The position numbers and the translations under genes are program-made. Below the pieces are notes generated by a model. It was given only the letters and a program-made list of their open reading frames with translations, ran no database searches and had not been told where the DNA came from. A DNA stretch of 64,000 nucleotides from a virus (taxonomy: Duplodnaviria > Caudoviricetes). Where the stretch lies: IMG/VR virus record IMGVR_UViG_3300033463_000025, positions 79,759-143,758 of that record, one strand, 5' to 3'. Position 1 is the first letter of the stretch. Each line of letters starts with the position of its first letter. Positions 3,516-39,567 of the stretch are shown one piece after another.

Positions 3516-3593
3516 TGGTGCATCGTCTGGGAGTCGAACCCAGCACCTGTTGATTATGAGTCAACTGCTCTAAACCTGATGAGCTAACGATAC
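3516..3593 (-). tRNA. tRNA with CAT anticodon (Ile2 or elongator Met)
   Basis: Cloverleaf: GTATCGT/ACGATGC acceptor, GTTGA-CTCATAA-TCAAC anticodon arm, GGTTCGACTCC T-arm, encoded CCA. Confidence 0.92.
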
Positions 3594-3693
3594 GTCTTTG
3601 TATCGGTCTATTCCCGATTGCCAACTATACACTCAATGAGTGCATAGATTTTAATGAAAAGAAGTAAGTAATGAATCGTTGTACGAAGACAAC

Positions 3694-3768
3694 TGGCTGG
3701 GGAGGCGAGAATCGAACTCACGAATAATCGGGTCAAAGCCGAGTGCCTTACCGCTTGGCTACTCCCCA
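3694..3768 (-). tRNA. tRNA-Gln(TTG)
   Basis: TGGGGAGTAGCCAAGCGGTAAGGC...TCGG-CTTTGAC-CCGA...GTTCGATTC...CTCCCCAGCCA. Confidence 0.93.
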
Positions 3769-11485: not shown

Positions 11486-11857
11486 TCATATCGCTTGCAA
11501 AATAGGAAATTGAATCAGCATCGCTTTCATTATTTCGCCTACGATATTCCCTTTTACTTCTCCGATTGGCTTATCCAAATTTTCCATTGGTAATGTACTA
11601 ATCTGTTCCACCAACAACGTACTTGGCACTCGCAATCCACATTCTTTATAATTCCAAATCTCAACGTGAATCGGTAACTTCCGTTTATTCATTTTTGAAG
11701 TAATCGGGATAACATTGACAATATCGGCATAAGTGTTATTCAAATCATTGGAAAGAATAAGCACAGGTCGATAACCACTCTGTACGCTCCCCGCCTTACT
11801 CGGCAGTTTGCACAGCCAAATCTGCCCACATTTAGGCTTATCGTTTTTGCCACACAT
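11486..11857 (-). CDS. mazF: MazF/PemK-family endoribonuclease
   Basis: GQIWLC..GSVQSGYRPVLILSND..N..VIPITS..LPIHV..S.LLVEQI.T. Confidence 0.92.
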   Translation of the reverse strand: MCGKNDKPKCGQIWLCKLPSKAGSVQSGYRPVLILSNDLNNTYADIVNVIPITSKMNKRKLPIHVEIWNYKECGLRVPSTLLVEQISTLPMENLDKPIGEVKGNIVGEIMKAMLIQFPILQAI

Positions 11858-12001
11858 AAAACCACCTCTCTGCATTGAAATATGTAACACAAATGCAAAT
11901 GGGTTTTATGCTCGCAATCAGCAATTATCCGTATTTACTTTTGGTAATTACACATCTCTCCTTTGGCAAAAGTAGTTTCCGTAGCATTATTGGTTTCTGT
12001 A

Positions 12002-12217
12002 TTATTCAAGATATTTTGTTTTAAGCTCAACGGGATTCGCCGCCTTTCCAAGTTTTTCCGCTTTATCATCTACCAGCTTATATAAGAAATATTGACTTCT
12101 CTCTATTTTGGAAGTAACAAAATAAGTTGTTCCGTTCGTATGGTACGTTTCCCACACAATCTCTGTCTTCGGTATTCCCTTAATGGCTTTATTCGGAATA
12201 GGGATGCCATCTATCAC
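12002..12217 (-). CDS. hypothetical protein
   Basis: 71-aa ORF overlapping the recombinase stop. Confidence 0.65.
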   Translation of the reverse strand: MIDGIPIPNKAIKGIPKTEIVWETYHTNGTTYFVTSKIERSQYFLYKLVDDKAEKLGKAANPVELKTKYLE

Positions 12218-13146
12218 TTAGCTACCCCCTCGGCATAACTGAACACATCATTGACAGCTTTAATATGAATTTGCGGGTCAGTAACATTCGCGTTCTGACA
12301 TCCTGCCTGATATGCCATAGTGATAAGTTCACGCAGGTCGTTGTTATCAAGCAACATCATGGGCGAGTCTGATTCGGGTGAATAGGTTTTATCACCAAAG
12401 ATATAATCCTTCCAAAAGTCACCCATATCAGAAGTGTACTTCTCTGTAGCCTCACGGTCAACGCCTGTATAGCGTCTTGTTACAGCTTCACTTGAATGAT
12501 TAAAGCCACGGCTTACAATCTGCATAGCATTTGGGTCTGTCTTATGAAGCTCAATGCTGGTTTTACCAAACGTCTTTCGGGAGCTGTGTGTGCCTAAATT
12601 ACGTTCGATGTTCAGCTTCTTCATAACGTCCTTCAGCGCATACATAGCACCAGAGTAGGACAACACAGAACCTTTGTGCGTTCCAGTAAACTGATAGAAC
12701 ACTTCGCGCTTGTAATCGTCGGTCGCTGGGTCATAACCAACAGCACAGAGATACTTGCCAATAGCAATCTTGACAGCCTCATTGATTTTTGGGGAAGCAT
12801 ACTTGCCTGTTTTCTGCTCTTTGATAGCCTTCAAGTTTTCTCTGAAATTACCCGTTTGCGGATTAAAGAAATCTTCCCACGTCAGCTTGCACATATCAGA
12901 AAAGCGTCGTGCAAGGTTATAAGACGTAACAAACAGAAGATAGTGAATCCACTTGTTATTCTGTTCAAAGTATTCTACCACACGCTTAGTGTCTTCGATA
13001 GATAACTCGTGAACCTCACAGCTTTTTCCTTTACACTTACTTGCTTTCTTAGCAACTGGCGTTTCTTCATGCTGAGGGAACAGCTCAATAACATTCCCTC
13101 TTGTAACTGTATTCGGATTATAATTTACAATAGCTGGTGCTGGCAT
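12214..13146 (-). CDS. tyrosine recombinase/integrase
   Basis: Full catalytic set: ARRFSD, EQKTGK, THSSRKT, FNHSS, TRRY. Start reset because the track start overlaps the -10 box. Confidence 0.92.
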   Translation of the reverse strand: MPAPAIVNYNPNTVTRGNVIELFPQHEETPVAKKASKCKGKSCEVHELSIEDTKRVVEYFEQNNKWIHYLLFVTSYNLARRFSDMCKLTWEDFFNPQTGNFRENLKAIKEQKTGKYASPKINEAVKIAIGKYLCAVGYDPATDDYKREVFYQFTGTHKGSVLSYSGAMYALKDVMKKLNIERNLGTHSSRKTFGKTSIELHKTDPNAMQIVSRGFNHSSEAVTRRYTGVDREATEKYTSDMGDFWKDYIFGDKTYSPESDSPMMLLDNNDLRELITMAYQAGCQNANVTDPQIHIKAVNDVFSYAEGVAK

Positions 13147-13176
13147 ATCCTTCAGCTCCTTTCTTAGATTGACTGC

Positions 13177-13446
13177 ATTATACCACAAGGAATAACATTT
13201 GTCAATAGGTTTATTGAGTTATTTTATAAAAAGTTTTTCACATACATGAATCAAATTTTCCATCAAGCGACTTTTAAACTAAGTTAAAAAAAACGCTATA
13301 TAGATGTAATATATAATTAATTTATATAGAATACTCTATTAGTATATAATCATATCTAATATAATCATATACTATATAACCTATTATCAACTATAAGATT
13401 ATTAACTAATATAATAATTATCTATTAAGTTGATAATAGGTACGTC
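13177..13446 (-). repeat. left copy of long inverted repeat, including promoter
   Basis: Reverse complement aligns to 39304-39567, with 41 bp identical (13352-13392 vs 39355-39395). Internal dyad ACCTATTATCAACT..AGTTGATAATAGGT; TTGACA-17-TATAAT. Confidence 0.9.
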
Positions 13447-13696
13447 ACCTCTTTTTACAATTTTTCCGTATTTTGCAAAATTTCAGTTAAATGAAATGGC
13501 TGTTTTATTGTAGAAAGTTTACCTCCCTATCAGCTTCGCCCACCCCTCTCGTTCCTCTGTGGCGTTCATATTTTGGTAGGGCACTCAACTTTTCCGTTCA
13601 AAGCAATTTAAAATGGAAAGTTGAAGTTCGCAAATATATGATTATATCCTATATCATAGGATAGTTCGTTAATTCTATAACAAACTTTTTCAGCAT

Positions 13697-13800
13697 AAAA
13701 ATAACAGCCCCCTCGGACACAAGGGGCTGTCGGTGTCAAAAGACAACAAACAAAGGAGTTAGGGGTAACTATGTTCGCTTGTTACCATCTTTGTTCATTA
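13697..13800 (-). ncRNA. candidate small RNA antisense to early-gene leaders/RBS
   Basis: TTGACA(13829-34)-17-TATAAT(13806-11), 5' hairpin, CU-rich core AACUCCUUUGUUUGUUGUCUUUUGACA, terminator stem 13704-13730; no sense ORF. Confidence 0.7.
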
Positions 13801-13830
13801 AGCAAATTATACACTACTACTTGCAATATG

Positions 13831-14100
13831 TCAAGTAACATCTGGCGTAGGATATTCCACGTCGAAATCACCACGAACGGCGGCGAAGGTCAAGGATGAG
13901 ATATATGCGTCATTTGTTCCGTCGCCTATGGCTATATACATTCTTGTTTGCGGTCTGATAGTAAATGTCTTATCTTCATTTAGCTTGTAGCTCTTGTGAA
14001 ATGTAATCACAGCATTTCTAACTTCGTTCTTATTCCGCACGAACAAGCCTTTGCCTGTCGTACCAATGGTAATTTCCTTGTCGTTATACAAACTAATCAT
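13831..14100 (-). CDS. hypothetical protein
   Basis: GAGGTG RBS before MISLYN. Confidence 0.65.
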   Translation of the reverse strand: MISLYNDKEITIGTTGKGLFVRNKNEVRNAVITFHKSYKLNEDKTFTIRPQTRMYIAIGDGTNDAYISSLTFAAVRGDFDVEYPTPDVT

Positions 14101-15928: not shown

Positions 15929-16296
15929 AATCTTTTCTCCTTTAACATTATTTTATTTGTCTTTTGACTTATGCTGTACGGTATTTTTTAACCTCAACCA
16001 ACGATATTATTATAGCCGATTTTCGTTAAATTGTCAAGTGATTTTACTTTTTTTTATGGTTTTTAATATTGTGGTTTTCTGTTTTAGTAATATAAATAAT
16101 TATATACATTACTGCCGCAATTTGTATAAAATCGTTTACATTATTTTGTTTTGAAAAATGACACCTTTTTGCGGACATCCGCAAATTGGTCTACAAAAAT
16201 CCCTTGTTTTTCAAAATAAAACCTTTTTGCCAACGCTGGCAAAATGGTAAAAGAAAAACCACAACCGAAGCTGTGGTTTTTTATTTATACCTCTAA

Positions 16297-23474: not shown

Positions 23475-23687
23475 ATTAGCCACCTTTTTAAACCTCCTAA
23501 GTTTGTTTATTTTGCCTTTCGACACCACTATTATATCAAATTATTTTTGTTTTGTCAAGTTATTTTCATGTTTTTATTAATTTTTAATATTGTATTTTTC
23601 TGCTATATACAGAAAATTGTTGTTTTGCAAAATCAAGTTTTCCATTATTATAAAACAAAAAGCCTTGAAAATCAAGGCTCTGTCTGT

Positions 23688-24107
23688 TTATAATTCTATT
23701 CCATCGAGATAATATATTTCTTCGTAGAATCCGCCACAAGCAATAGCGATATTCTGAAGGTCGTCTACAATAAATCTTCCCTTGCTCACACGTTCAAAAG
23801 CGTTCTGTCTTGAGTGCATCATGCCTTTATCTGCAAGCACAGCATAACTCGTGCCCGTCTTTTCCATTAGCTCTTTAATCATAGCAGTAAAGCTAATACC
23901 TGTTATGGTTTTTCCACCAATAACAAACTGTGATGTATAGGTCAACTCTAAAATTTCAGCCAGTTTGTCTATTTCTTCCTTTGTATATAACTCTTTGCCG
24001 ATTATATAACTCATCTTGCTTTTATCAACACCGTATAATTCCGCAAGTTTCGGTACTTTCATTCCGCGTATTTTCATAGCCGCTTTGAATTTTTCCGTTC
24101 GTGCCAT
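23688..24107 (-). CDS. tandem XRE-like HTH regulator (putative)
   Basis: Two HTH-like repeats (KLAELYGVDKSKMS; VLADKG..SRQN); own promoter and terminator. Confidence 0.65.
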   Translation of the reverse strand: MARTEKFKAAMKIRGMKVPKLAELYGVDKSKMSYIIGKELYTKEEIDKLAEILELTYTSQFVIGGKTITGISFTAMIKELMEKTGTSYAVLADKGMMHSRQNAFERVSKGRFIVDDLQNIAIACGGFYEEIYYLDGIEL

Positions 24108-24346
24108 AATGATACCTCTTATACATATGATGATTGTTTTTCAAAATTAAATATTTCTGTGAAGCGTAAACAGCTTTCCTTAATTTTTCAAAATTGTATT
24201 TTCCTGTAAAAGAGTATATCAAATCCGCGCTGGTTTGTCAAGCGGTATTAGTATATCATTTACTTTTTAATATTAAGTTTTCCGACAATTAAAAGAGGAC
24301 AGCCGAAGCCGTCCTCAATTAGTCTTGACGTATTTTTGTCAATTAA

Positions 24347-24784
24347 TTATGTTATTGACGTTTTATAGTCAACTGTCGGAAGTTTAGATACCCACGTTAT
24401 AAGTTCCGATAAACAATGTAACTTCTCTTTTTCAAACTCTTCTTCCGTAGTCGCTCTGATAATGTATTCAATTACATTATCCTTCTTGTTGTGGTATTCA
24501 AACGGATAAGGAGGCTGATATTCCGCAGTCGTAAAGAGTTCATAATCCAAATGAAAAGATACATAAATGTTGATGTTTCCGTTGTAATGTGACTCACAAC
24601 AGCTCGCAGTCTTATATCCTTTTTCATTCAAAAGCCTTATGATTCCTTGCATATTCTGGTCTATAAAGATTAACTCCCACGGCGGATAAAGTTCGCAAGT
24701 GCATCTGTTTAACTGCTGAAAACAGTACGGGCATACATAGTTTAGGTAATCTTTCTTTGCAGGTCTATGTCGATTCAACGCCAT
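24347..24784 (-). CDS. Cys-containing hypothetical protein
   Basis: CPYC..C.C; LNEKGYKTASCCESH. Confidence 0.7.
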   Translation of the reverse strand: MALNRHRPAKKDYLNYVCPYCFQQLNRCTCELYPPWELIFIDQNMQGIIRLLNEKGYKTASCCESHYNGNINIYVSFHLDYELFTTAEYQPPYPFEYHNKKDNVIEYIIRATTEEEFEKEKLHCLSELITWVSKLPTVDYKTSIT

Positions 24785-24816
24785 ATAATCGCCCCTTTGC
24801 TCTGGTTATACCACCA

Positions 24817-25320
24817 TTATACCACAGCTTTTGAAGCCTTGCAAGGATTGTATTGATTATATTCTGTAGGGTTTTTGACGCTTTCTCGAACAGCTTTCAT
24901 AATATGATTCGGTGTGATTCCAAAATCTTCACAGCCCTGAACAATTCCGTAGAAGTAAGTCGCCGCAGGCGGAGCGATACCCTTTCGCTCCTTAGTCATA
25001 ACATAAACGGTAGCTTCTACGAGTTCGCCATCTTCAGTAATGACGTTCACTTTCTCGCGGGTATAGTATTTCGGATAACCTTCATACATATCAAGCCTTC
25101 CCCACTCTGACGGGTTAATGTCCCAAAGAGCTACAGGCAGAACATCCTTGTCGTCGCCTGTCGGGATAATATCAGCGTGAATATTGAATACCAACTTGTA
25201 ACCTTTGAGATATGCTTTACCAATGGGCACAGATAACGGGCAACGCCATCTCATCTGCTCTAAATTCATATTCGAGCCATACGCAACATAATAATTTTTC
25301 TTTGTCTTTTTCTTAGCCAT
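24817..25320 (-). CDS. gamma-glutamylcyclotransferase (AIG2-like)
   Basis: YVAYGSNM, RCP, LDMYEGYP, VYVM motifs. Confidence 0.9.
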   Translation of the reverse strand: MAKKKTKKNYYVAYGSNMNLEQMRWRCPLSVPIGKAYLKGYKLVFNIHADIIPTGDDKDVLPVALWDINPSEWGRLDMYEGYPKYYTREKVNVITEDGELVEATVYVMTKERKGIAPPAATYFYGIVQGCEDFGITPNHIMKAVRESVKNPTEYNQYNPCKASKAVV

Positions 25321-25353
25321 AATCTATTCCTCCATTTCTTTTAATACAAATAC

Positions 25354-25665
25354 TTAATTTGACGCAAGATTTTCTTCAATCTTTGCGATACATTCTTCTA
25401 TGGACTTATAAAAGCCCTTGCAACTTGTTTCTTTTAAATTGTTATCTTTTGTAAGCAAATAATCAACGATTTCAAAATGACTAAATTCGCCATCATATTT
25501 GATTCGGCAAGGTCTAACTATATGATAATAACCTTTCTGGTTCATATAGTAATAGAATTTACCTTCAGCAGATTTATAATACTTATTGATTGTAAATCTG
25601 GTTCTTTTTCCAGTCATACGGTCAATAGTTTCATGCGCTTCTTGTGAATAACTCGGCAACATCAT
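25354..25665 (-). CDS. hypothetical protein
   Basis: GGAGG RBS. Confidence 0.65.
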   Translation of the reverse strand: MMLPSYSQEAHETIDRMTGKRTRFTINKYYKSAEGKFYYYMNQKGYYHIVRPCRIKYDGEFSHFEIVDYLLTKDNNLKETSCKGFYKSIEECIAKIEENLASN

Positions 25666-25669
25666 TGTG

Positions 25670-25987
25670 CTATACCTCCTTAATTGTTATATCATATTTT
25701 CCCCATTCATTACTTTTACTTGCTATAATGGATAATCTTTTCAGCTTGGTAATATTGCCAGCATCATCAAATTCGACGATAGAGAATTTATCCTCTAAAT
25801 AATAATCCCCCATCGTTTGTAACAGCTTATTTAACGATGCTTTAGCTGTCCCAATCTTACTAAACAACTTTTCGGGTTTTAACAATTCTGCTTTCTCCCA
25901 AAACACTTGATACTTATTCCAACCGTTTATTAAATAATAAGTTCCTTCTGGTGATTCACTCTTTATTGTGTACCTCATATTTTCCAA
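25670..25987 (-). CDS. hypothetical protein
   Basis: Promoter plus RBS. Confidence 0.65.
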   Translation of the reverse strand: MENMRYTIKSESPEGTYYLINGWNKYQVFWEKAELLKPEKLFSKIGTAKASLNKLLQTMGDYYLEDKFSIVEFDDAGNITKLKRLSIIASKSNEWGKYDITIKEV

Positions 25988-26224
25988 CTCCTTTTTGTAG
26001 TTTGTCTATATTATAGCGTGTTGCAATAATTTTGTCAAGTTATTTCACTGTATCTATTGATTTTTAATATTGTGTTTTTCTGTTCTGCCTGCACGAAGAA
26101 TTATTGTTTTGCAAAATTATACTTTTCTGTTAATGGGTAGCAGAAATTTTCCATTTCAAAAAATAATATAACTAAAATAAAACCGTCGTTTCATCAACAA
26201 ACGACGGTCATATTTTCCATCTTA

Positions 26225-27691
26225 TTAGGCGGCAATAACGGCTTCTTTTAACTTGAACAGATAGTCGTTAAGTGTTGTTGAGCCTTTTGATTTTCCGCGT
26301 CTGAAATAGGTATAGCCAACTCCACCGTTATGATTAAAGTCAACCTCGTGCAACTTGTCATTAACAAAACCTTGCACCTTCAGCGGAACAGAAATATCAT
26401 ACTTGCGGAACAGATAATTGAAGATAGAATACTCATTTGCTTTGTAATCAAATTCTCCATCATCAGAAGTCTTTTTATAAATAGTGATATATTTATTACG
26501 GAGCGTTCCGCCGTTCTTTATCGTTTCAATAGCTTCTGCGATTTCTTCCTCGGACAGTCTTACACCGTCCTCAAATTCAGTCTTTCTTTTTCTTTCCGCT
26601 TCTGCTTTTCTCTCGGCTCTCTTATCCTCTTGCGCCTGTCTGTAATTCTTTCGAGCCTCCCAAGCTCCTGCCTCAAGGTCGGGGAAGGCAACTTTAATAA
26701 ATTCAACATGGACAAGATGCAACCATTTATTATTAGCAATCATATCTTCATACCAAGCGCGAAGGCAAGGTAATGAGTTAATATCTGACGTAGTGCGTTC
26801 AACTGTTTCTTTCACAGTACGGTCGGCGTATTCTTTATAAATCCACATACCAGTTTCATACTCGTCAAAGATAACATAAATGTCACACATTTTATTCCAG
26901 CCGTCACTTTCAGCCTCACCAACATAAAGTGTATCGCTGATTTTACGGACTTTCTTCTTATGAATAACAGCCTTGTTTCCATCTCTGCCGAACATAATCA
27001 GCCGTCGAGTTTCAGCCTTGCTCTTAACGTCGCTCAGCTTTGTATCAGGCGTTACCTCTACAACAGGTTCTTCGGGAGTTTCTACAACTTCCGCTTTCGG
27101 GTCGTAGTTTTCAACGTCTTCCAGCGTGAACACAATAGCGTTGGTGTTACAATCATCATAGCGCATCGGGCACAGAATAGCGGATATACCGTTCTTAGTG
27201 TTGTATTCTGTATCGCAGAGCACAATAGGCTTCAGCGGCTTACCAACACAAATAAACGCTTCCTTTTCGCCTATGATTTCCAGCAGGTCAAGAACATACT
27301 CTGCGTTCATATAAGCATCGCCAATATGAAGGACAATGCGCGAATATTTATTAGTACGCTCGCGCTTCTTAGTCGTCAGGAATTTTTTATACTTTGCCTT
27401 GTTTACTTGATAGGTCGTAAACTTTTCTGTATCGTCGGCAAAGTCGGTCAGTCTGTCGTGCATCAGCTTTGCTAATGATTGTACCCTGGATTTGCCGTTA
27501 GCGTCGAGGCTTTCATATGTTGCGAAGTCGTCATCGCAGGTCAGATTTGACAGAGCTGATTTAACCAATCTAAAACCATCTGTAATATAGGCTTCGTTTT
27601 CGTAAATCAAAATCTGTCTGAATACTTTGGTCTTATCTGTTTTGTTGTTGTGTAAAATCCTTGTGTACGCGGCTTTGTTTAACTTTTTCAT
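26225..27691 (-). CDS. 488-aa protein with N-terminal beta-clamp-like motifs
   Basis: AYITDGFRL, MNAEYVLDLL, KPIVL, AILCPMR; own promoter and terminator. Confidence 0.6.
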   Translation of the reverse strand: MKKLNKAAYTRILHNNKTDKTKVFRQILIYENEAYITDGFRLVKSALSNLTCDDDFATYESLDANGKSRVQSLAKLMHDRLTDFADDTEKFTTYQVNKAKYKKFLTTKKRERTNKYSRIVLHIGDAYMNAEYVLDLLEIIGEKEAFICVGKPLKPIVLCDTEYNTKNGISAILCPMRYDDCNTNAIVFTLEDVENYDPKAEVVETPEEPVVEVTPDTKLSDVKSKAETRRLIMFGRDGNKAVIHKKKVRKISDTLYVGEAESDGWNKMCDIYVIFDEYETGMWIYKEYADRTVKETVERTTSDINSLPCLRAWYEDMIANNKWLHLVHVEFIKVAFPDLEAGAWEARKNYRQAQEDKRAERKAEAERKRKTEFEDGVRLSEEEIAEAIETIKNGGTLRNKYITIYKKTSDDGEFDYKANEYSIFNYLFRKYDISVPLKVQGFVNDKLHEVDFNHNGGVGYTYFRRGKSKGSTTLNDYLFKLKEAVIAA

Positions 27692-28079
27692 GGTGTAAAC
27701 CTCCTTATATTCTGTGGGTCTTTTGACAATATAAATATACCACAGCTCGCGGTTTATGTCAAGTTATTTTATATTATTTATTACTTTTTAATATTGACAA
27801 ATTTTGAATTGAATTATGGATTTGCCAGTCGTCAAGGATTCCTTGACAGCTAAATCTTTATTTTACAAAATCAAGATTTCTTGTAATTTGTAAAGTGGAT
27901 AGAGCTGTAACAAAATAGCTTTTTACTATTTTTCAAAATTAATTTTTTCTGCTGTGTCAGAACAGAAAAATTGAATATTTAAAAATAAGTTATTATCGGC
28001 ATATGCGGATATTAAGTTTTGAAATATTAACTTTTTCTGTTGTGGAAGGCAAAACGAAAACCGCCTTTCGGCGGTTCGT

Positions 28080-28307
28080 TTAAATCTTTCGTTTTTCCAA
28101 GTATTTTGATATTGAATTATTTAATCCCTTTAAACATTCATCACATAAAACCATAAGTCGCGGACTGTGTACTCTTCCAATCCAAATTTCATTCAATGAG
28201 TCAACTCTCTTTTGTGGTAATCCACTGTCAAAAGTAATACCTCCACAATGTTCACAAGTTCCGATAAGTTCACTCGCTTCTTTGACTTTCATTTCTATAT
28301 TATCCAT
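28080..28307 (-). CDS. small zinc-finger protein
   Basis: CEHC...LCDEC. Confidence 0.65.
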   Translation of the reverse strand: MDNIEMKVKEASELIGTCEHCGGITFDSGLPQKRVDSLNEIWIGRVHSPRLMVLCDECLKGLNNSISKYLEKRKI

Positions 28308-28382
28308 TAGTCGCCCTCCAATAATACTTTATAAAATTATTATACCAAATTGTTATGATGTTGTAAAGCTAATAAAAAAAAG

Positions 28383-28595
28383 TTAGTTAATATACCTACC
28401 AACATTTGAAAGCACTTTGCGTAACTCTTCCGAAAAGTAACCATAAACTTTTGTTTTTAGTTCCATCATTTCTTTGTAAGTAATTACTTCGTTTATATAA
28501 AGAATATCAAGCTGTACTAAGTTTGCTCTGGTCGTATGCTGAAGGATTCCCAAGTCACCGTTATAAGAAAACTGAACATTAATCAAATCGGTCAT
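28383..28595 (-). CDS. hypothetical protein
   Basis: GAGG RBS before MTDLIN. Confidence 0.55.
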   Translation of the reverse strand: MTDLINVQFSYNGDLGILQHTTRANLVQLDILYINEVITYKEMMELKTKVYGYFSEELRKVLSNVGRYIN

Positions 28596-28596
28596 A

Positions 28597-28896
28597 TTAA
28601 AAACCTCGCTTTTCTTTGTAATAAAGTCTATCAAGTGCTTCAATGATTATCTTTGATTTATCTTTTGCATAATTACAAAGTTCTGTAAAAACGCTTCCAC
28701 AATCGTTCATCATCGCAACAATATTGCTACACAAATTAAACTGAGCTATATAATAGCTTGCATTAAGATAACAAGTTTCAATGCGCTTGCCGTTTGACGG
28801 TTTATTATTGATAATTTCCATCACCTCGGCATATGCAAAATCAATACATTCTTTTGCTTTATTGGTGAAGTATTCAATGTTAAAAGTATTATCCAT
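28597..28896 (-). CDS. hypothetical protein
   Basis: GGAGG RBS. Confidence 0.65.
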   Translation of the reverse strand: MDNTFNIEYFTNKAKECIDFAYAEVMEIINNKPSNGKRIETCYLNASYYIAQFNLCSNIVAMMNDCGSVFTELCNYAKDKSKIIIEALDRLYYKEKRGF

Positions 28897-28912
28897 TATT
28901 TTTAACCTCCTA

Positions 28913-29185
28913 TCATTTGCACTCGTCTAAGAAATTATATTTTGATAACTTGCCGAAGTGAGTTAAATATTCATCATTCATAAACGCGGCAACTTCTCTA
29001 AATTCAACTTCTTCAATAAGGTCTGATACAAAGTAACAGAACATATCTTTGCTGTTATGCTGATGCAGTAAACCATAAGTGATTATGTTTTCTACTGTAG
29101 CTCTGAACATGAAATTTTCCAAACCGTTATATTCGCTTTGCAGGTATTCCATAAAACCTTGTTTGTTAAAACCTCTGTCATTCAT
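28913..29185 (-). CDS. hypothetical protein
   Basis: Start reset to MNDRGF; the track TTG start is the -35 box. Confidence 0.7.
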   Translation of the reverse strand: MNDRGFNKQGFMEYLQSEYNGLENFMFRATVENIITYGLLHQHNSKDMFCYFVSDLIEEVEFREVAAFMNDEYLTHFGKLSKYNFLDECK

Positions 29186-29406
29186 TGTAATTACTCCTTT
29201 CATTTCTTTGTCTTTTGACGTTTTAATTATATCAAATCGGGCGGATGTTGTCAAGATATTTTACGTTGTATATTATTTTTTAATATTAAATTTTTCTGTC
29301 AAGTTTTCCATCTACTATACACATTATCTTTGTTTTTCAAAATCAAAGTTTCTTGTTGAGGCAAAAGAAAACCGTCAAGCCGAAGCCTGACGGTTAGCAA
29401 TTACTG

Positions 29407-29733
29407 TTACTGGACAAGTAAAGGACAATGGTTTTTATCTCCAATCCAAACGATTACTTTTCCTGTTTCGGTATTTCTTTCTGCAAAGCAATAACTAAAG
29501 CCATCAGCACAGTAAATCCATTCCTTGTCTTTTGTTTTCTTTGCGGTATTTATAGTTTCACGATAACATTCATAGTTTCCATTTTTCCAAAAGTATTCAA
29601 CGCAAATAGAAGCTGTGTTTTTATCTGATTTTAATTCGATAAATTTAATATTGATTTTATAATTGTTCATCTTTTTATGTGATTCTATGACGATTTTTCT
29701 AATTAAATCTACATCTTTCGGATAATTTTTCAT
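29407..29733 (-). CDS. hypothetical protein
   Basis: GGAGG RBS before MKNYPK. Confidence 0.6.
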   Translation of the reverse strand: MKNYPKDVDLIRKIVIESHKKMNNYKINIKFIELKSDKNTASICVEYFWKNGNYECYRETINTAKKTKDKEWIYCADGFSYCFAERNTETGKVIVWIGDKNHCPLLVQ

Positions 29734-29753
29734 GCTGATAACCTCCAATCTTT

Positions 29754-29957
29754 TTATACTAAGTCGGATTGCCCGTATTTCTTTTTCCATTCCTCACACT
29801 GTTTTTCAAGAACAGCCCTGTCATCGCTTCCGCCTCTGATTTCATCATCGCCTGCAACTCTTTCTCCACCAGGGAAGCGGTAACACGGGAAGCCGTGGTC
29901 AACTTCTGTGAATATCCCAATATACTCACAGCATCTAACATATTTCGGATATTTCAT
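29754..29957 (-). CDS. hypothetical protein
   Basis: GGAGG RBS before MKYPKY. Confidence 0.6.
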   Translation of the reverse strand: MKYPKYVRCCEYIGIFTEVDHGFPCYRFPGGERVAGDDEIRGGSDDRAVLEKQCEEWKKKYGQSDLV

Positions 29958-29972
29958 TTTGATAACCTCCAA

Positions 29973-30443
29973 TCAATACCAATTATTAGCGTCAGCGTCT
30001 TTTAAAAATCTTTCCTTTGCTCTCTTGAACGCATCTATTGTGTCTTTTCCATAGCCTGCCTCGGTCAGATATTCAGCATACCCATACCCATTCACAAACT
30101 CACATTCTTTGAAGCAACTGCAAACGTCATAGTCGCCCTGATAGTTTATATGGTATTCATGGTTTGCCATTTCAGAATAGAAAGCACCCTCGGCAAAGTC
30201 AGCGTCCTTCATAAGCTCATCAAGCGGGTCTTCCTTATGAAGCCAAGCCCTAATAATCGGCGCATCTTTCTTGAGATAGAAGCCGCCTCCGCTAATCTTA
30301 TAGATTTTGTCCGTGTCGTGAATTGTTAAGCCGCGCTCATTCATCGCCTTTTCAAACTGCTTATTGCTAAAAGCAAAGAATATCGGAAGCTCGTTAAATT
30401 CCTTTTGTCTCGCAGTTTTGTAGTCGTCGTAAGTAATAGTCAT
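29973..30443 (-). CDS. hypothetical phage protein
   Basis: PIFFAFSNKQF..GGGFY..EMANHEY; own promoter. Confidence 0.8.
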   Translation of the reverse strand: MTITYDDYKTARQKEFNELPIFFAFSNKQFEKAMNERGLTIHDTDKIYKISGGGFYLKKDAPIIRAWLHKEDPLDELMKDADFAEGAFYSEMANHEYHINYQGDYDVCSCFKECEFVNGYGYAEYLTEAGYGKDTIDAFKRAKERFLKDADANNWY

Positions 30444-30777
30444 CAGATTTTCCTCCTTTATTATATTGTTGTATCTTTTGACAATATAAGTATAGCATTT
30501 TCCTGTTGTGGTGTCAAGATATTTTCCTTCGTTTATTAGTTTTTAATATTAGTAAAATCTGTTTCTGATTATCCTCTTTGCACTGCATTGTTCAGTTCGG
30601 TTTGGTGTAATGCAAGCTAAACTGAATAATCCGATATTGCAAAATCATAATTTAGTAAATCGTAATTTTGCAAAATTGAGTTTTTCTGTTTGGCTAATAC
30701 AGAAAAACTTGATATTGAAAATTAAAGTCGTAAAGAAAAAAACCGCCTGTTACAGCGGATTTTTTCTATTATACTTT

Positions 30778-30990
30778 TTACCATTCTTCAAATTTTCGTT
30801 TTGGTCTCTCGTCATAAAACAAGGTGTAGCCGTTAATATATGGCTCAAATGTTTTCCGTTCTTTTACGTTTGTCCATTCAATAGTTTCTGTTACACCGTC
30901 AGCAAACTTTAAGTCAGCAATAGGTGTTACGTTGTACTCATTAAAATAAATTCTTACTGCAACAATATGGCGCATTAAAGTGTTATTCAT
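30778..30990 (-). CDS. hypothetical protein
   Basis: Downstream of DGR target 2 in the same unit. Confidence 0.6.
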   Translation of the reverse strand: MNNTLMRHIVAVRIYFNEYNVTPIADLKFADGVTETIEWTNVKERKTFEPYINGYTLFYDERPKRKFEEW

Positions 30991-31020
30991 AACTTAATTA
31001 CCCCTTTTATTTTTTTTGGT

Positions 31021-31641
31021 TTAGTCAATAGGAGATACAAAGATAGTAGATTTGAAGATAAAAAACGGACGAAGCCCAATCACGCCGTAGTAGCTGACGT
31101 AGTAGATGCTACCGAGAGGCGACACACAAAGAGCTAATGAACTATCATAGTGAGGTAGTGTGCTCCAAGCCGTTGCAAGCCACCACCAAATATCTAACTT
31201 ATATTTGTCAAAAATTTCTGTGTTTGCGCGGTAGAAGTCAAGAGTCGCAAGGCTGATTCGTGAAGTCATAGTGCCAAATACCTTTAACCCATCAAGAGTA
31301 GTCAGGTCTGTGGTAAATTCTAAAACATTATCATCACCAACAGCGGCAATTACCTGCGGCAGATATTCTTCCTTGAGAAGCGTTAATGCGTGACTCTTGC
31401 TAAAGTCGTTTGTGTTGTCGTCAAACTTTTCATCAGTATAAACTGCGTCTTTAGTCATAACAACAGCTTTTCCATCGCTCTCGGAGAACTTAATAAATGT
31501 GATTCCGCCAATCTCAAAAGTGCTTCCATCTTCGATTTTTGAAAGCTGGACGGTTTTTCTGTTTGCTTTGTTTACGAGGCTCAGAAGGTTTGCTCTTTCC
31601 TCTTCAGTCAGGTTATCCATATTGATTGTGATAGTTTCCAT
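31021..31641 (-). CDS. DGR target protein 2 (remote paralog of target 1)
   Basis: TDLTTLDGLK, WWWLATA, CVSP..GLRPF..IFVSP. Start reset to METITI. Confidence 0.9.
   Translation of the reverse strand: METITINMDNLTEEERANLLSLVNKANRKTVQLSKIEDGSTFEIGGITFIKFSESDGKAVVMTKDAVYTDEKFDDNTNDFSKSHALTLLKEEYLPQVIAAVGDDNVLEFTTDLTTLDGLKVFGTMTSRISLATLDFYRANTEIFDKYKLDIWWWLATAWSTLPHYDSSLALCVSPLGSIYYVSYYGVIGLRPFFIFKSTIFVSPID
31063..31133 (-). repeat. DGR variable repeat VR2
   Basis: 13 mismatches to TR, all at TR adenines. Confidence 0.95.
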
Positions 31642-31917
31642 AATGCTTACTCCTTTGTAATATAGTATTTGTCTTTGTGACATCCTTATTATAACATAAT
31701 TCAATAGTTTAGTCAAGTTATGTTATAATTTTTATAATTACCTTTTTCTGTTCAGATTCATCAAGAAATAATAGTTTTTCAAAAATAGATTTTTCTGAAA
31801 TTTTCCACCAACTATTATTATTTTGCAAAATTGATTATTCTTGCGCCATGACGCAGAATTGTTCAATATCAAAAACTAAAAGCCACAACAGAAAACCCGC
31901 CTTTCGGCGGGTAACTG

Positions 31918-32421
31918 TTAATCCTCATACTCCCTTGAGAGTATAAAGTCATATCGTTCGCAGTCGTCTACAAAATCTGTGTCGGGATTATAAATCAGGT
32001 AAGTCAGCATCAGTGTACCGTCACTAATAGGAATACCCAAATCAAAGTATGAAATATAATTGTATTCTGATTCCGTGTTCAATATTCTCCCGTCACCTTT
32101 GGTTTTATTAACAACTTTTCCGATAACTCTTTCAACTATAAGCGTATTGCTTGCCGTTCTGGTTTCGAGGATTTCAGCGGTCAGCTCATCGGGATTATAA
32201 ATCTTGAAATTTTCCAAATCTAATATGAAGTTTTCCTCTAATGGTTTATAGGGATATTGTTCATCAAGTGTGATTTCATCCATTGTGGTTTGCTCGGCTG
32301 GTTCGTTTACTTGCCCAACAGCATTGAAAATCGCGCCAACTGTTCCCAATAAAGACATCACAACTAATAGTGTTGCAAAAATAATAATAAATACCATAGT
32401 AAATTTATTCATGGTCTGCAC
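31918..32421 (-). CDS. N-terminally membrane-anchored or exported protein
   Basis: Hydrophobic N-terminal helix followed by an acidic domain. Confidence 0.75.
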   Translation of the reverse strand: MQTMNKFTMVFIIIFATLLVVMSLLGTVGAIFNAVGQVNEPAEQTTMDEITLDEQYPYKPLEENFILDLENFKIYNPDELTAEILETRTASNTLIVERVIGKVVNKTKGDGRILNTESEYNYISYFDLGIPISDGTLMLTYLIYNPDTDFVDDCERYDFILSREYED

Positions 32422-32426
32422 CTCCT

Positions 32427-32681
32427 TTATAATCTCACGCCGTAATTCATGTTGATTTCAATATCTGTGCCGTCGAAATTGCCGCCCTGCTTTTTGAAGT
32501 GTTCCTTGCAATACTCAATAGCTTCATCCTCAGACTTGGTAAAGCGTCCGATTCCGCAGTAATAATATGTTTTGCCTGCATCAACACTTGTGTAAACCTG
32601 TGCATTGTGTGTGTACCCGTCAACAGGGAAGTACATTTTCTCGATTCCGTATCTGAATTTTATTTTGCTCATGTTTTCCAA
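32427..32681 (-). CDS. hypothetical protein
   Basis: Promoter plus RBS. Confidence 0.65.
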   Translation of the reverse strand: MENMSKIKFRYGIEKMYFPVDGYTHNAQVYTSVDAGKTYYYCGIGRFTKSEDEAIEYCKEHFKKQGGNFDGTDIEINMNYGVRL

Positions 32682-32997
32682 CTCCTTAATATATTATGTC
32701 TTTTGACAATCTAATTATAGCAAATCGTCGGTTGTTCTGTCAAGTATTTTCCCGCGTTTTATTAATTTTTAATATCTCAAATTCCTGCGTGATTTTCCTC
32801 TGCCTGGTCTGCTCGGCGCAGGATTCCTTTGTTTTCCAAAATCAAACTTTTCTGTTGAGCAAAACAGTTTTTCTTAATATTTCAAAATCAAATTTTCCAC
32901 CAACTATATAACCCAATAAACGAAAATCACCAGAGCCGAAGCCCTGGTGATTCCCGCAAATAGAAAGGAGATTTATGAAAACAAATAAAAGTGGATG

Positions 32998-33294
32998 TCA
33001 AATTGTAAAAGCCTGCCCAATCTGCTCATAGTCAGTAGCAATAAATGGTTTCTGAAGATATGCTTCGATGCCGTTCATCAGAGCCTTCTCGATTGCGTCC
33101 TCATTATACTTGCCCTGTTTGTAACTATAGCCCCAGCGAAAAATCTTCATCAGCTCCGCAACTTTTTCAGCGGTAGTGCTCTTGTCAAAAACTCTTTTTA
33201 AAAAATCACAGTGCGCCAGCGCATAGTTATAAGCGATTTTCTGTTCGGCTGAACATACTCTAATGCTAACTTTAGATATTTTGTGCAACTTCAT
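32998..33294 (-). CDS. hypothetical protein
   Basis: Start reset to MKLHK. Confidence 0.7.
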   Translation of the reverse strand: MKLHKISKVSIRVCSAEQKIAYNYALAHCDFLKRVFDKSTTAEKVAELMKIFRWGYSYKQGKYNEDAIEKALMNGIEAYLQKPFIATDYEQIGQAFTI

Positions 33295-33590
33295 TTTGGT
33301 TTGCTCCCTTCGGTTTATTACAATCGTATTGTAGCACGTCCGCGTTATTTTGTCAAGATATTTTCCGCTATTCATTACTTTTTAATATCAGCGTTTTCTG
33401 CTCTCCGTGCGGTCGGCAAAGAGTTTTAATTTTGCAAAATCATATTTTTCTGTTGCTCCTGCGGATGCCAGCACAGAAATTTTCCATTTTTCAAAATTAA
33501 GATTTTCCGTTACTAATAAGCAATAAGAAAAACGCCGCCTGTTGGCGACGTTCTTCTTCTGCTCAACTATATCTTTTCTCTTTAGGAGGA

Positions 33591-33923
33591 TTAATCTATT
33601 GTACGGTAAAAATAATCGAGCTGTTCACCCTTCAGATTTTCCCTTGCATAATTGTCGGCGGTCTCCCAGAGTTCATTGTAAACTTCCGCGTAGGCTTTAT
33701 GCCCTGCGTTATAATGCTCCCAAATTTTCCAATTAAGAGCCATTACTAACTCTGTTAAGTAGATGTGGTTATTTTTCCAAGCTCTCATCGCTCTGCGGTA
33801 AGTGTCGCGGATTGCGGGGATGCCGAATCGGTCAGCGATAGAAAAGTCCATGTAGAAAGTAGTCTGAGGCTTGTAACCTGTGATTGCCTCGATATTCCAG
33901 TCTTTGTAAGTCATTGTAGCCAT
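33591..33923 (-). CDS. hypothetical phage protein
   Basis: TTFYMDFSIAD..LTELVMALNWKIW; own promoter and terminator. Confidence 0.8.
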   Translation of the reverse strand: MATMTYKDWNIEAITGYKPQTTFYMDFSIADRFGIPAIRDTYRRAMRAWKNNHIYLTELVMALNWKIWEHYNAGHKAYAEVYNELWETADNYARENLKGEQLDYFYRTID

Positions 33924-34263
33924 TTGTCAAATCTCCTTTGTTATAGTTTATTTTGTCTTTTGACAACCTTATTATAACAAATAGGTTTTTATTTGTCAAG
34001 ATATTTTCCGCTATTTAATAATTTTTAATATTGCGTTTTTCTGTTGCCATGGTTCTGTCGCGGCTCGCCCAGCGCAAGGAATCTTTGTTTTTCAAAATCA
34101 CGATTTTCTGTGGAGCTTCAACAGAAAAATCAAATTTTCCAAAATAAAGAATTATAGCGCGGTCGCGCAGAAAAGTGGGATATTTCAAAATCAAGTTTTC
34201 CGTTTACTATTAGCGGCAAAAAAAACAACCCGCCTTTCGGCGGGTCTGCTTTTGTGTTTTTCC

Positions 34264-34758
34264 TTATGCTGTAATTCTCGCTTGCTCTTCGGTCTCAACT
34301 TCCTGACTGCCCCAAAGATTTCTAATTTCATTCATTGTATAGGTTTTCTTGCCCTTCTTCACATAGTCCTCAGTGTGATAATACCATGCAGACTTGTTTT
34401 TGCTCCATCTGAACTTTAATTCCTTCAAGATTTCCTTGTACGGTTTAGTGTTACCAGAGAGCCAGAGCCACGAGCCGCAAATCTCAATAAGCACGTTTTC
34501 AAAGTGAATCAGCTTGTTGATGATTTCGATAAATTCAGCAGGCTTTTCCTTTACCTCGGTGTCGGTCGTGTAGACTTCACCCTTCGCGTTGGTGTGGGTA
34601 TTCTTGAGCAGGTGGAATAATGTCTGATACTCGTTGTTGATTTCTTTCATGTCCTGTTCAAGTCCGCCAATGTCGGGATGATGCTCCATCGCTAACTTGC
34701 GGTACTGCTTCTTCAGCTCTTCCAGTGTACGCGGATTTTCAAACCATTTTGTTCTCAT
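34264..34758 (-). CDS. J-domain (DnaJ-type) protein
   Basis: LKKQYRKLAMEHHPDIGG..MKEINNEY. Confidence 0.88.
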   Translation of the reverse strand: MRTKWFENPRTLEELKKQYRKLAMEHHPDIGGLEQDMKEINNEYQTLFHLLKNTHTNAKGEVYTTDTEVKEKPAEFIEIINKLIHFENVLIEICGSWLWLSGNTKPYKEILKELKFRWSKNKSAWYYHTEDYVKKGKKTYTMNEIRNLWGSQEVETEEQARITA

Positions 34759-35114
34759 AATGACAACTCCTTTAAAAATATTTTATTGTCTTTTGACATC
34801 TATATTATAATGCCGCCCGTTCGTATTGTCAAGTATTTTTGCTGTGTTTATTGATTTTTAATATTTCATTTTTCTGTCCTGGTGCCTCGGTCGCCAGAGC
34901 GTCCGCAGGTCAGCAGGATTGCTTTGTTTTTCAATATTGAGATTTTTTGCTGAAGCTCCGCCTCGCGGTCGCTGGATTCCTTTATTTTGCAAAATCAAGA
35001 AAAACTGTTGCTCCCCAGCACGGGAGAACAGAAAAGTATAATTTTGAAAAATTAAGTTTTTCTGCGATGCCAGGCAAAAAGAAAAGCCGCCTCGGTCGGC
35101 GGCTCTCGCGTTGG

Positions 35115-35348
35115 TTAAATATCATACACTCCGTTCTCTTCTTGTCTCGCTAAGATAGCATCTTCATAATCAGGATAACTACAATTATAAGCGTTATAAG
35201 GTGAAGTCTTATAGCCTCTCAATCCATCGGTGCAAATCTTGCCGTTCGTGATAGCGTAACAGTTATTACACAGTCCATCGCAAATCTGATTCTTCCATTT
35301 ACATTTAGTGCCGTAAATATCTTTTACATAGTCTGGTATAATAGTCAT
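35115..35348 (-). CDS. small Cys-rich protein
   Basis: Start reset to MTIIP. Confidence 0.6.
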   Translation of the reverse strand: MTIIPDYVKDIYGTKCKWKNQICDGLCNNCYAITNGKICTDGLRGYKTSPYNAYNCSYPDYEDAILARQEENGVYDI

Positions 35349-35362
35349 TGTTATAACCTCCT

Positions 35363-35632
35363 TTATATGTATTGAAGTCTTTTTAATCCCCAATCAGTTA
35401 TTCTTTCTTTAACGTATTTTAATTCCCAATCTTCAAAACCCTCTTTGAATAAGTAGCCGAAAATCATCAAGGAATAATCAACTGCATCTTCAAATTGTAA
35501 AAACGGGTCGAATCTGTTAATCTCTTCGCCTGTCTCGTGTCCTTCGTGCATTAAGCAAACGAGGCAAGCGATTAGCTTTTCCGTATTAAGTGTATAAATA
35601 CTTGCTCTTTCTTGAATTTCTTTTGTAGTCAT
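35363..35632 (-). CDS. hypothetical protein
   Basis: Start reset to MTTKE. Confidence 0.65.
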   Translation of the reverse strand: MTTKEIQERASIYTLNTEKLIACLVCLMHEGHETGEEINRFDPFLQFEDAVDYSLMIFGYLFKEGFEDWELKYVKERITDWGLKRLQYI

Positions 35633-36855: not shown

Positions 36856-37320
36856 AATTTCCAGCTCCTTTGATTTCTGTTTGGTTTCTGTTTGTCTTTT
36901 GACATTTTCCATTATAATGCCGTAAAAGAATTTTGTCAAGATATTTTCCGTAAATCATTATTTTTTAATATCAAATTTTCCTGTTTGTCACAGCTCAAAT
37001 TTTCCAAAATGATTGCCTGGTCAGATTTTCCTTCTTGACATCTTCCGCCAAGCAATATATGATTATTTTTAGAAATTGAAATTTTCTGCTTGCTCAGGTT
37101 GCTCCGCCGCAAATTTCCGCGATTTTGAAAAATAAAGAAATTCTGTAGGGACGCAGGCTGAAGCCAGGGAGAAGCCACAGAAAAAGATAATTTTGCAAAA
37201 TTGAAAATTTTTGCGGATGCAGGCGGCTCAGACGCAGAAAAATTGAATTTTGAAAAATAAAGTTTTTCTGCGGGAGCACAAAAAAAAATGACCCGCCTTT
37301 CGGCGGGTCTGTCGGTCTGA

Positions 37321-38199: not shown

Positions 38200-39303
38200 A
38201 GCTAATCTCCTTTGCTTTGGCTCCCGTCGTGGGAGGCGGTTTGTTGTGCTTTCGACACCATTATCTTAGCACGAGCCGCGCCCAGATGTCAAGCTAAATT
38301 TTGCAAAATCCTGATTTTTTGCTTATATTCGTGCAATTTGAACAGTTGACACGGTTTATTTTTGCGGTCTTTTGTGCAATATTCACAAAGCCTCTTTCGT
38401 CAATTTGCACAATTAGCAGGTAGGTTATTTGTGCAGTTTGCTATCTGTCATCGCCCTGGTGCCTGAGCGCGAACACGGGCGTAAATTTGCTATTAGTTTT
38501 ATTATAATAACATAATTTGCACAAAAATTTTGGTCTGTCGCAAGCCCTGGTGAAGTCGTCAAAGTACGAAAAACGGTACTCTGAAAAGCGAGAAAATGTG
38601 AAGATTTTTCACCAAAACGAACCAGACGAAAAAAGACAGGAGAGCTATTTAAAATTTATTTTAAATAGCTCAACTTCGGTGGATGTGAAAATTTTTCACC
38701 ACTTCCCGAAGCAAAAAATCTTGATTTTTCAAAATCAAGAAATTCTGATGAAATCCCTGTTTTATTACCTACGGTAATAACTCTCGGTAACTGAAGGTTT
38801 TGCAAAAGGCTACAGTTACCACGGAATTATGACGGTTAGCTTTAGCTAACCGCTCACGAACCAACCTACGACGGGGGTAGGTTTACATCTCCAACCTTTC
38901 TTCTACCCTTAAACCTCTTAATAGGAGCTATCCCCTAAACTCCCAAAAATTCACTTCTCTCCGATTCTCTTTTCCTTATTCCTCACTATCCCAAAAAATG
39001 ATAGGTTGCAACTTAAAAACGAAGCCACAAACCGAATAAAAATAACCTACCGTAAAAATGGCAGGTTGATTTTTCTCATCGGCTGATGCTCGGCAAAGCC
39101 GTAAAATACAGGTCGAAGGTTTATTCTTTTAGCTTATACCCTTAATTTAACTTGCAAGCTGTAAAAGTCTGATATAATTATACGCCCGAAAATTGAGTAA
39201 TCGGGCTTAATTTTTTACCTCGTGTTTCTTGTGGTTTGGAATAGGATTGCCAGCTTTTTGATTCAAATTCAGCTCGAATTTGCAAAATTGAATTTCCGAA
39301 GTG

Positions 39304-39567
39304 GACGTACCTATTATCAACTTTAGTTAATTATTATATTAGTTAATAATCTCAAGTTGATAATAGGTTATATAGTATATGATTATATTAGATATAATAA
39401 TTAACTAATAAGGTATTCTATTATAATATATTATATATACCTATATATATGTCATTTTTGGCGTGAGTTTGTACGCAAGTTTGGCGTGTTTTTGTTTTCA
39501 GAAATACGCAACTTTTTATAAAATATTTTTATTATACTATTGACATTTGCTGTAATTGTGATATAAT
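39304..39567 (+). repeat. right copy of long inverted repeat, including RNAP promoter
   Basis: See left copy. Dyad arms 39309-39322 and 39355-39368; TTGACA(39540)-16-TATAAT with extended TG. Confidence 0.9.

Follow-up and report, generated by a model that had tools for sequence, protein, structure and literature searches.

The question raised by this locus is whether a unit of about 100 nt, found on the - strand at 13697-13834, encodes an antisense small RNA (sRNA) able to silence in trans the early genes of the phage in which it lies. The DNA analysed, referred to as the window, is the last 64 kb (64,000 nt) of a single virus record of 143,758 bp, IMG/VR record IMGVR_UViG_3300033463_000025, and positions are given relative to it. 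A preliminary description, made from the letters of the DNA, had proposed that one such RNA silences about a dozen early leaders. The anatomy of an sRNA gene, the complementarity to 12 leaders and the presence of a separate candidate operator support this proposal in part; against it stand a core which is only half unpaired and a live alternative, in which the unit is a relic. A probability of about one half is assigned to the unit being a working trans-antisense repressor RNA of those early leaders which share a short sequence, hereafter the tag.

The elements of the unit are the following:

13829..13834, - strand: -35 hexamer TTGACA, overlapping the TGA stop codon of an upstream gene of 89 amino acids (aa)
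13806..13811, - strand: -10 hexamer TATAAT, separated from the -35 by a 17-nt spacer; promoter score 12/12
13697..13799, - strand: predicted non-coding RNA of about 100 nt, with a putative start 7-8 nt past the -10 and an end within the U-tract
13764..13786, - strand: 5' hairpin GGUAAC-N11-GUUACC, 6 bp, from fold prediction
13734..13760, - strand: anti-leader core AACUCCUUUGUUUGUUGUCUUUUGACA, including the anti-Shine-Dalgarno (anti-SD) segment CUCCUUU at 13758-13752 and the anti-tag GUCUUUUGAC at 13744-13735
13694..13731, - strand: intrinsic terminator, made up of an 11-bp stem (13731-13703) and the ATTTTTAT U-tract

Promoter (13834-13806), hairpin, core and terminator were thus all recovered as the preliminary description had them. 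Promoters scoring 12/12 number about a dozen in the 144-kb genome, and mostly drive genes of the early array, a series of promoter cassettes located on the - strand at 16-38.3 kb. The absence of an open reading frame (ORF), also claimed previously, holds on the - strand, where the only frame between promoter and terminator is 9 codons long and has no SD; it does not hold on the + strand, where a 42-codon frame starts from the ATG at 13771. Folding of the RNA of about 100 nt, from 13799/13800 to about 13697, gave -34.1 kcal/mol, compared with -20.6 ± 3.0 for shuffled sequences (z -4.5). In the minimum-energy fold, an 11-bp outer stem is formed by the 5' end of the RNA, AAUGAACAAAG (13799-13789), and by the CUUUGUUUGUU segment of the core (13755-13745); on its 3' side follow a short linker, which holds the anti-tag, and the terminator. 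Base-pair probabilities indicate that the anti-spacer part of the core is paired, and that the UUUU of the anti-tag, as well as CCCUAAC, are mostly open. The earlier description of the core as unpaired is thus only half correct. Own promoter, lack of a - strand ORF, intrinsic terminator and stable fold, all found in the sequence, are generic features of stand-alone sRNA genes, and the unit looks like one. A scan of the whole window against Rfam, at gathering score, assigned no family to the candidate RNA.

The array to which the core is complementary includes about 18 sigmaA-type promoters, many of them with a 12/12 consensus, and each cassette is composed, in this order, of a promoter, a short leader, one to few small genes and an intrinsic terminator. 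The tag is the exact 10-mer GTCAAAAGAC, present in seven leaders on the - strand, at all the positions previously reported, and once inverted. The inverted copy, at 13735, is the only + strand one in the window, as had been noticed, and the sole leader-type inverted copy of GTCAAAAGAC...AAAGGAG sits inside the candidate RNA unit. Allowing up to one mismatch, 14 matches were detected against 5.6 expected, a number reached in none of 100 shuffles. Five variants reported earlier, three of them at approximate positions (about 23515, 31671 and 38247), are also real: GTCAAAAGAT occurs twice, and GTCGAAAGGC, GTCGAAAGCAC and GTCACAAAGAC once each. Overall, the tag or a variant of it is found in 12 of the 18 array promoters:

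38246..38256, - strand: variant GTCGAAAGCAC, at the putative +1 of P38292, which is the first early promoter; the inverted copy has here its closest paralogue (duplex energy -30.6, net energy -19.2 kcal/mol)
36894..36903, - strand: tag GTCAAAAGAC, P36939
34788..34797, - strand: tag, P34832
33955..33964, - strand: tag, P33999
32698..32707, - strand: tag, P32743
31671..31681, - strand: variant GTCACAAAGAC, P31716
30473..30482, - strand: variant GTCAAAAGAT, P30517
29210..29219, - strand: tag, P29254
27718..27727, - strand: tag, P27762
23514..23523, - strand: variant GTCGAAAGGC, P23558
22228..22237, - strand: variant GTCAAAAGAT, P22275, beginning 9 nt past the -10
15959..15968, - strand: tag, in the 5' untranslated region (UTR) of P16037, 40 nt past the -10

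The G of the tag is located 6 nt past the -10 in nine of the 12 tagged promoters, 7 nt in one and 9 nt in one. Given the distance of 6 nt in nine promoters, the tag is most simply placed at nt 1-10 of the mRNA, and probably represents the first 10 nt of the early mRNAs, as counted from the inferred +1. In the leader of P16037, where it lies 40 nt past the -10, the usual distance between tag and SD is retained, so that the tag would most simply travel with the leader, not with the promoter. The substitutions found in the variants are five (C10>U twice, A4>G twice, A9>G once); all are A>G or C>U on the sense strand and all retain G.U pairing with the RNA, for which we estimate a chance probability of about 0.005-0.04, depending on the number of independent events.

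The terminator of the unit also closes the upstream operon, made up of P16037, a gene for a 605-aa methyltransferase (MTase)-like protein and the 89-aa gene. It is found 100 nt past the stop codon, compared with 6-33 nt for eight array terminators. The mRNA of this operon, ending at the same terminator, contains a tagged leader and the anti-leader in its own 3' UTR, and, as the operon reads into the sRNA terminator, a 3'-UTR-derived form of the RNA is possible.

Energies of interaction with the targets were computed by partition-function cofold, including the costs of opening both RNAs; duplexes of the core alone were computed separately. These two calculations were used instead of plain RNAduplex, which on full-length RNAs produced uninformative, whole-length pairings. 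Pairing against the start regions of the phage, proposed as a check in the preliminary description, put the 12 tagged leaders at ranks 1-12 of 223 SD-preceded start regions genome-wide (-12.7 to -23.6 kcal/mol), not counting the + strand of the locus itself, to which the RNA is exactly complementary. The remaining start regions average -4.2 kcal/mol (standard deviation 2.7), and the best of them reaches -11.5. Cofold energies of the nine leaders with at most one mismatch in the tag range from -13.3 to -18.9 kcal/mol. When leaders were taken from the putative +1 to the start codon, the 12 tagged ones scored -13.0 to -19.2, and the five scorable untagged array leaders -0.6 to -9.9. In core-only duplexes, each of the 12 leaders engages the core over its entire 24-28 nt, at energies of -25 to -32 kcal/mol, the variable spacer being looped out, and every predicted duplex covers the SD with 6-11 pairs. 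Complementarity to the tag and SD of 12 early leaders, and to essentially nothing else in the genome, is supported by these comparisons, and the modelled RNA does show the preference expected of one that would be specific for the tagged regulon.

Several observations weigh against a working repressor RNA. High scores on the targets follow by construction from the common tag and SD blocks, and the predicted fold of the RNA hides half of its core. One further exact GTCAAAAGAC exists genome-wide, on the - strand, within a coding region and with no leader context; for a single 10-mer, about one such copy is expected by chance. The pattern of substitutions suits equally well a GUC/GAC mini-hairpin within the leader, and for this reason favours a role of the tag at the RNA level in general, rather than through this RNA in particular. 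Among phage, viral, metagenome and genome contigs, none was found close enough for an analysis of covariation; identity to the best homologue found for a neighbouring protein is 44-45%, and for the adjacent 89-aa protein none was found outside this phage. Finally, the inverted copy specifically resembles the leader of P38292, including the bases around the ATG, and the two lie just inside the respective copies of a large inverted repeat, in the same relative position and pointing away.

The searches for relatives covered both DNA and proteins. GenBank phages gave no match by either megablast or blastn; in IMG/VR, an exact-pattern search for the core returned 0 matches, a looser pattern combining promoter and tag produced single chance matches only, across 118 contigs, and four contigs which were compared showed no similarity. 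Searches of viral, metagenome and genome contigs anchored on the 89-aa, 605-aa and recombinase-like neighbouring proteins reached best identities of 31-45%. The phages identified through the neighbouring proteins differ in promoter architecture, and lack both the tag and the AATATTAAAAA element.

The likeness to the first early leader introduces the main alternative, namely that the unit is a neutral relic of an inverted duplication, its hairpin being merely the terminator of the operon, and any short transcript coming from a chance or remnant promoter and having no regulatory role. The copy is homologous to the P38292 leader, GGTGTCAAAAG-ACAACAAAC corresponding to GGTGTCGAAAGCACAACAAAC and AAAGGAG-TTAG..CTATG to AAAGGAGATTAGCTATG. 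Both are on the array side of an inverted repeat of about 300 bp (13170-13480 / 39270-39580), 83% identical overall and 91% over 121 nt, which flanks the 26-kb early array; each copy of the repeat ends in an outward-facing consensus promoter (13205, - strand; 39540, + strand), and the two promoters are homologous to each other. Given this likeness and the repeat-flanked position, the early control region was very probably duplicated in inverted orientation long ago, giving rise to the anti-leader. In addition, conservation in relatives was not seen, no close relatives having turned up in the searches.

Within the repeat itself, the two copies hold a 14-bp internal inverted repeat, ACCTATTATCAACTT / AAGTTGATAATAGGT. 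The length of a Logan contig, 26,022 nt, corresponds to the interval separating the copies, and suggests either that the assembly breaks at the repeat or that there is a polymorphism by inversion.

The duplication accounts for the origin of the anti-leader, not for its retention. The inverted copy reads GTGTCAAAAGACAACAAACAAAGGAGTT, and consists of the tag, an A-rich spacer and the array SD AAAGGAG with its usual flank. It matches the leader consensus at 13/13 positions of the tag region and 9/9 of the SD region, whereas free divergence is seen in the spacers of the array copies; in a neutral copy as old as the spacers suggest, not all of the 10/10 tag and 7/7 SD positions would be expected to survive. 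The promoter elements expected 5' of the copy on the + strand are all lost, and a 12/12 promoter on the opposite strand is placed exactly so as to make the copy an antisense transcript. By composition, such a promoter with a 17-nt spacer is expected, by our estimate, about 0.1 times per genome, yet one is present here. The terminator, too, lies farther from the stop codon than the array terminators do, and the intervening 100 nt contain the promoter. As a further comparison, the reverse complements of all 13 versions of the leader were taken as hypothetical antisense RNAs. The real copy, the shortest of the 13, ranks first for the energy on its weakest target (-23.6) and for the energy per nucleotide (-1.00, the others ranging from -0.37 to -0.79) and second for the mean, and is the best generalist antisense among those tried. 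The consensus blocks, the placement of promoter and terminator, the ranking as antisense and the substitutions which keep G.U pairing argue for retention by selection, and the neutral relic is considered unlikely. Anatomy, specificity of the complementarity and consensus-like character of the copy are matters of observation.

The inverted copy may also be read in the sense direction, since it precedes the + strand frame mentioned above:

13771..13899, + strand: 42-codon frame behind the inverted copy (AAAGGAG, 12 nt, ATG at 13771), with no promoter at the cassette position

It could be proposed that this is a gene for a 42-aa product, provided with an array-type leader and controlled in cis by the overlapping - strand RNA, in a layout resembling type I toxin-antitoxin systems. 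The succession of tag, AAAGGAG, ATG and 42 open codons has, by our estimate, a chance of about 1% or less. The best match to a promoter near the cassette position is, however, 9/12; the distance between SD and ATG is 12 nt, compared with 8-9 in the array; the peptide has, by inspection, no hydrophobic helix typical of type I toxins, so that a hydrophobic toxin ORF with its own promoter was not found opposite the antisense RNA; and the frame, antisense to the 3' end of the 89-aa gene, contains the - strand promoter. A functional + strand gene is therefore regarded as most improbable, and the frame is read as a putative relic of the start of the duplicated first early gene.

Alternatively, the tag could act on the DNA, at the level of initiation, as an operator, a roadblock or an initial-transcribed-sequence element, the inverted copy being an orientation-independent extra site. 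Its placement at +1..+10 in 9 of the 12 tagged promoters is a classic position for an operator, and GTC-N4-GAC has symmetric arms of 3 bp. Moreover, a tyrosine-recombinase-like gene is located 500 bp away, and in SPbeta a protein of this fold, MrpR, is the master repressor, which binds a repeated element named SPBRE (PMC10516654). Such a role would leave unexplained the intact SD block of the inverted copy, and the copy at 15959 keeps its distance from the SD rather than from the promoter. The orientation of the A4 centre is the same in all 12 array copies, and the local recombinase-like protein retains, as judged by eye, the R, HxxR and Y motifs, unlike MrpR. A far better operator candidate is in addition available. 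BLAST comparison of the region against the genome revealed a perfect 12-bp palindrome, ATTTTGCAAAAT, present in the window in 26 copies with at most one mismatch, against 1.4 expected. Nearly all of them are contained in intergenic parts of the array (23600-39300), often as pairs 57 bp apart:

33429/33486, 34984/35041, 35782/35839 and 37190/37247: examples of ATTTTGCAAAAT pairs
13470-13481: ATTTTGCAAAAT copy
38298-38309: ATTTTGCAAAAT copy, abutting the -35 of the first early promoter, P38292

The master repressor of the phage probably has its operator in this palindrome, which would correspond functionally to the SPBRE of SPbeta. As an orthodox candidate exists, the tag need not be an operator, and is less likely to be one bound by protein, being short, asymmetric and strand-constant. 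The possibility that the tag is itself the SPBRE of this phage was rejected: the consensus derived from the listed SPbeta target promoters (NC_001884: aimR, yonT, yonP, yonX, yopV, yopM, yorE) is approximately AAATACAAAWAATATGTAT, a palindrome, to which the asymmetric GTCAAAAGAC is unrelated, and ATTTTGCAAAAT was found. An action of the tag on the DNA is thus held to be distinctly improbable. The SPBRE/MrpR regulon resembles the present one in that many early promoters of a large temperate phage of Bacillus type bear a common repeated element (PMC10516654); it differs in that SPBRE is a DNA palindrome bound by a protein, to which ATTTTGCAAAAT more likely corresponds here. The pair formed by tag and anti-tag would be an additional layer, at the RNA level.

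Another element, AATATTAAAAAWTAAT, occurs at about -67 to -53 in 14 of the 18 array promoters (for instance at 32780-32765). It contains the palindrome ATTAA-N3-TTAAT, is followed by an A-rich stretch beside the -35, and could serve as an UP element or be bound by a second regulator. The Spo0A box, TGTCGAA, was also considered for the tag, two variants of which read GTGTCGAAAG, and was rejected as the main explanation: the T is absent in three tags, the core G is mostly replaced by A, and the conserved 3' GAC falls outside the 0A box. The promoter of the candidate sRNA has neither the upstream element nor the tag nor the palindromic operator, and with none of these it is likely constitutive.

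On this basis a mechanism may be outlined for the trans-antisense repressor, to which, as a whole, we give somewhat less than an even chance. A dozen early mRNAs of a temperate phage would bear a 10-nt address at their 5' end, and one constitutive anti-leader RNA would read both address and SD, its anti-SD being masked until engagement. The promoter at the end of the last early gene, with its -35 over the stop codon, would drive an RNA of about 100 nt, ended by the strong terminator. The centre of this RNA would be the reverse complement of a minimal consensus early leader, i.e. the tag GUCAAAAGAC, a short A-rich spacer and the SD AAAGGAG. The partly open anti-tag, 5' of the terminator hairpin, would capture the extreme 5' end of a tagged mRNA, acting as a toehold usable by tagged mRNAs only, and masking of the anti-SD would avert indiscriminate pairing with every SD. 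Pairing would then spread, displacing the RNA's own 5' arm from the anti-SD, until the duplex extends from nt 1 of the mRNA up to and including the SD, the variable spacer forming a loop. Such a duplex would block the binding of ribosomes and probably generate a substrate for a double-strand RNase. One constitutive sRNA gene facing 12 strong promoters would set a threshold: the RNA would mop up leaky or incoming early transcripts while the array is repressed, in lysogeny or upon superinfection, and would be out-titrated in the full lytic burst, providing a layer of immunity at the RNA level. Transcription, direction of the effect and timing are here inferred from the sequence, and a choice between early shut-off and maintenance of lysogeny is pure inference.

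With the same RNA and the same pairing, the effect might have the opposite sign, shielding the 5' ends of the mRNAs from 5'-end-dependent decay and boosting early expression. sRNA pairing protects mRNA 5' ends in FasX-ska and RoxS-yflS, and the most accessible part of the core is the anti-tag, which pairs with nt 1-10 of the mRNA, the anti-SD being sequestered in the RNA's own stem. All predicted duplexes, however, also cover the SD, which should block initiation, and activation is thus very unlikely.

As for the genomic context, the phage, with a G+C content of 37%, is a distant SPbeta-like one, as indicated by its portal protein, which shares 43% identity with the portals of SPR, BUCT082 and some SPbeta-like phages and 25% with the portal of SPbeta itself. 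Genes are on the - strand from 1 to 38.2 kb and on the + strand from 39.7 kb onward. The final operon of the array, from P16037 through the 605-aa DUF4942/MTase-like gene to the 89-aa orphan gene, ends at 13.83 kb. It is followed on the 3' side by about 500 bp free of genes and then by a consensus promoter (13205-13177), which drives the tyrosine-recombinase-like gene, a 71-aa ORF and a MazF-like toxin gene. Other features of the window are:

12214-13146, - strand: tyrosine-recombinase-like gene, coding for a 310-aa protein of the Phage_integrase family and adjoining one copy of the inverted repeat of about 300 bp
11486-12217, - strand: MazF/PemK-like toxin gene, 134 aa (Pfam E 4e-22), preceded by the 71-aa ORF in the same operon as the recombinase-like gene
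37035-37063, + strand: near-consensus promoter TTGACA-17-TATGAT (11/12), facing the 3' end of the first early gene (37321-38199, - strand)
38300-39300: about 1 kb with no ORF, several GTGAAAAATNTTCAC-like palindromes and a folded-looking, G+C-rich stretch at about 38800-38960
45878-45914, + strand: Rfam abiF RNA motif (48.5 bits, gathering score 37), directly 3' of a 425-aa + strand gene
3516-3768, - strand, and 43646-43721, + strand: three tRNA genes (Met, Gln, Met)

In the 310-aa protein, R (ARRFSD), HxxR (HSSR), H and Y (RRY) are kept, as judged by eye, and it may be an active recombinase, either integrase or invertase, rather than an MrpR-like repressor; a sequence search of PDB gave no match for it. 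The 71-aa ORF could code for the antitoxin of the MazF/PemK-like toxin, the promoter at 37035-37063 may drive a second antisense transcript, and the stretch at 38300-39300 could be a replication origin or an RNA of unassigned kind.

If the proposed repressor is real, one RNA would act on about 12 separately promoted transcripts, as a one-to-many post-transcriptional switch over the early programme of the phage, and would offer a simple model for how immunity and noise suppression at the RNA level are layered on control by a repressor. The combination of a 5'-end address with a masked anti-SD could serve as a programmable multi-gene brake in Bacillota. The unit may also exemplify a strategy that recurs, uncatalogued so far, among large phages with arrays of promoter cassettes.

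Among known systems, c4 of P1/P7 is a phage RNA which acts in trans on ribosome-binding regions of phage transcripts, giving immunity (PMC12197685). Together with CI of P4 (Rfam C4, RF01695), it is the closest known functional analogue of the candidate RNA. The likeness consists in short antisense blocks which include the ribosome-binding site, here complementary to the tag and SD of 12 leaders. While c4 is processed out of an operon transcript, the candidate RNA has a promoter of its own, and its targets would be 12 separate transcripts, reached through a tag at their extreme 5' end, rather than a single operon. It does not belong to the C4 family, because the covariance model RF01695 gave no match at gathering score in the whole window and none at E <= 5 in the region 13150-13900.

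RsaE/RoxS of Bacillota (RF01820) is similar in its general organization, in which a 5' hairpin and a terminator enclose a single-stranded, pyrimidine-rich anti-SD segment, and acts on the SDs of many mRNAs. The candidate RNA differs from it in having no C-rich CCCC motifs and in carrying the complement of a phage-specific tag; with the RF01820 model it scores 18.6 bits (E 1.9), against a gathering score of 79, and is not assigned to this family. Finally, sar of P22 and OOP of lambda are small phage antisense RNAs which repress translation, or promote decay, of the mRNA of a phage regulator (PMC12197685). They share with the candidate the presence of their own promoter and terminator, but are encoded in cis and overlap a single target, whereas the predicted targets of the candidate are many and located 2-25 kb away. 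To our knowledge, the known phage antisense RNAs (c4, CI, sar and OOP) each control one transcript or one operon.

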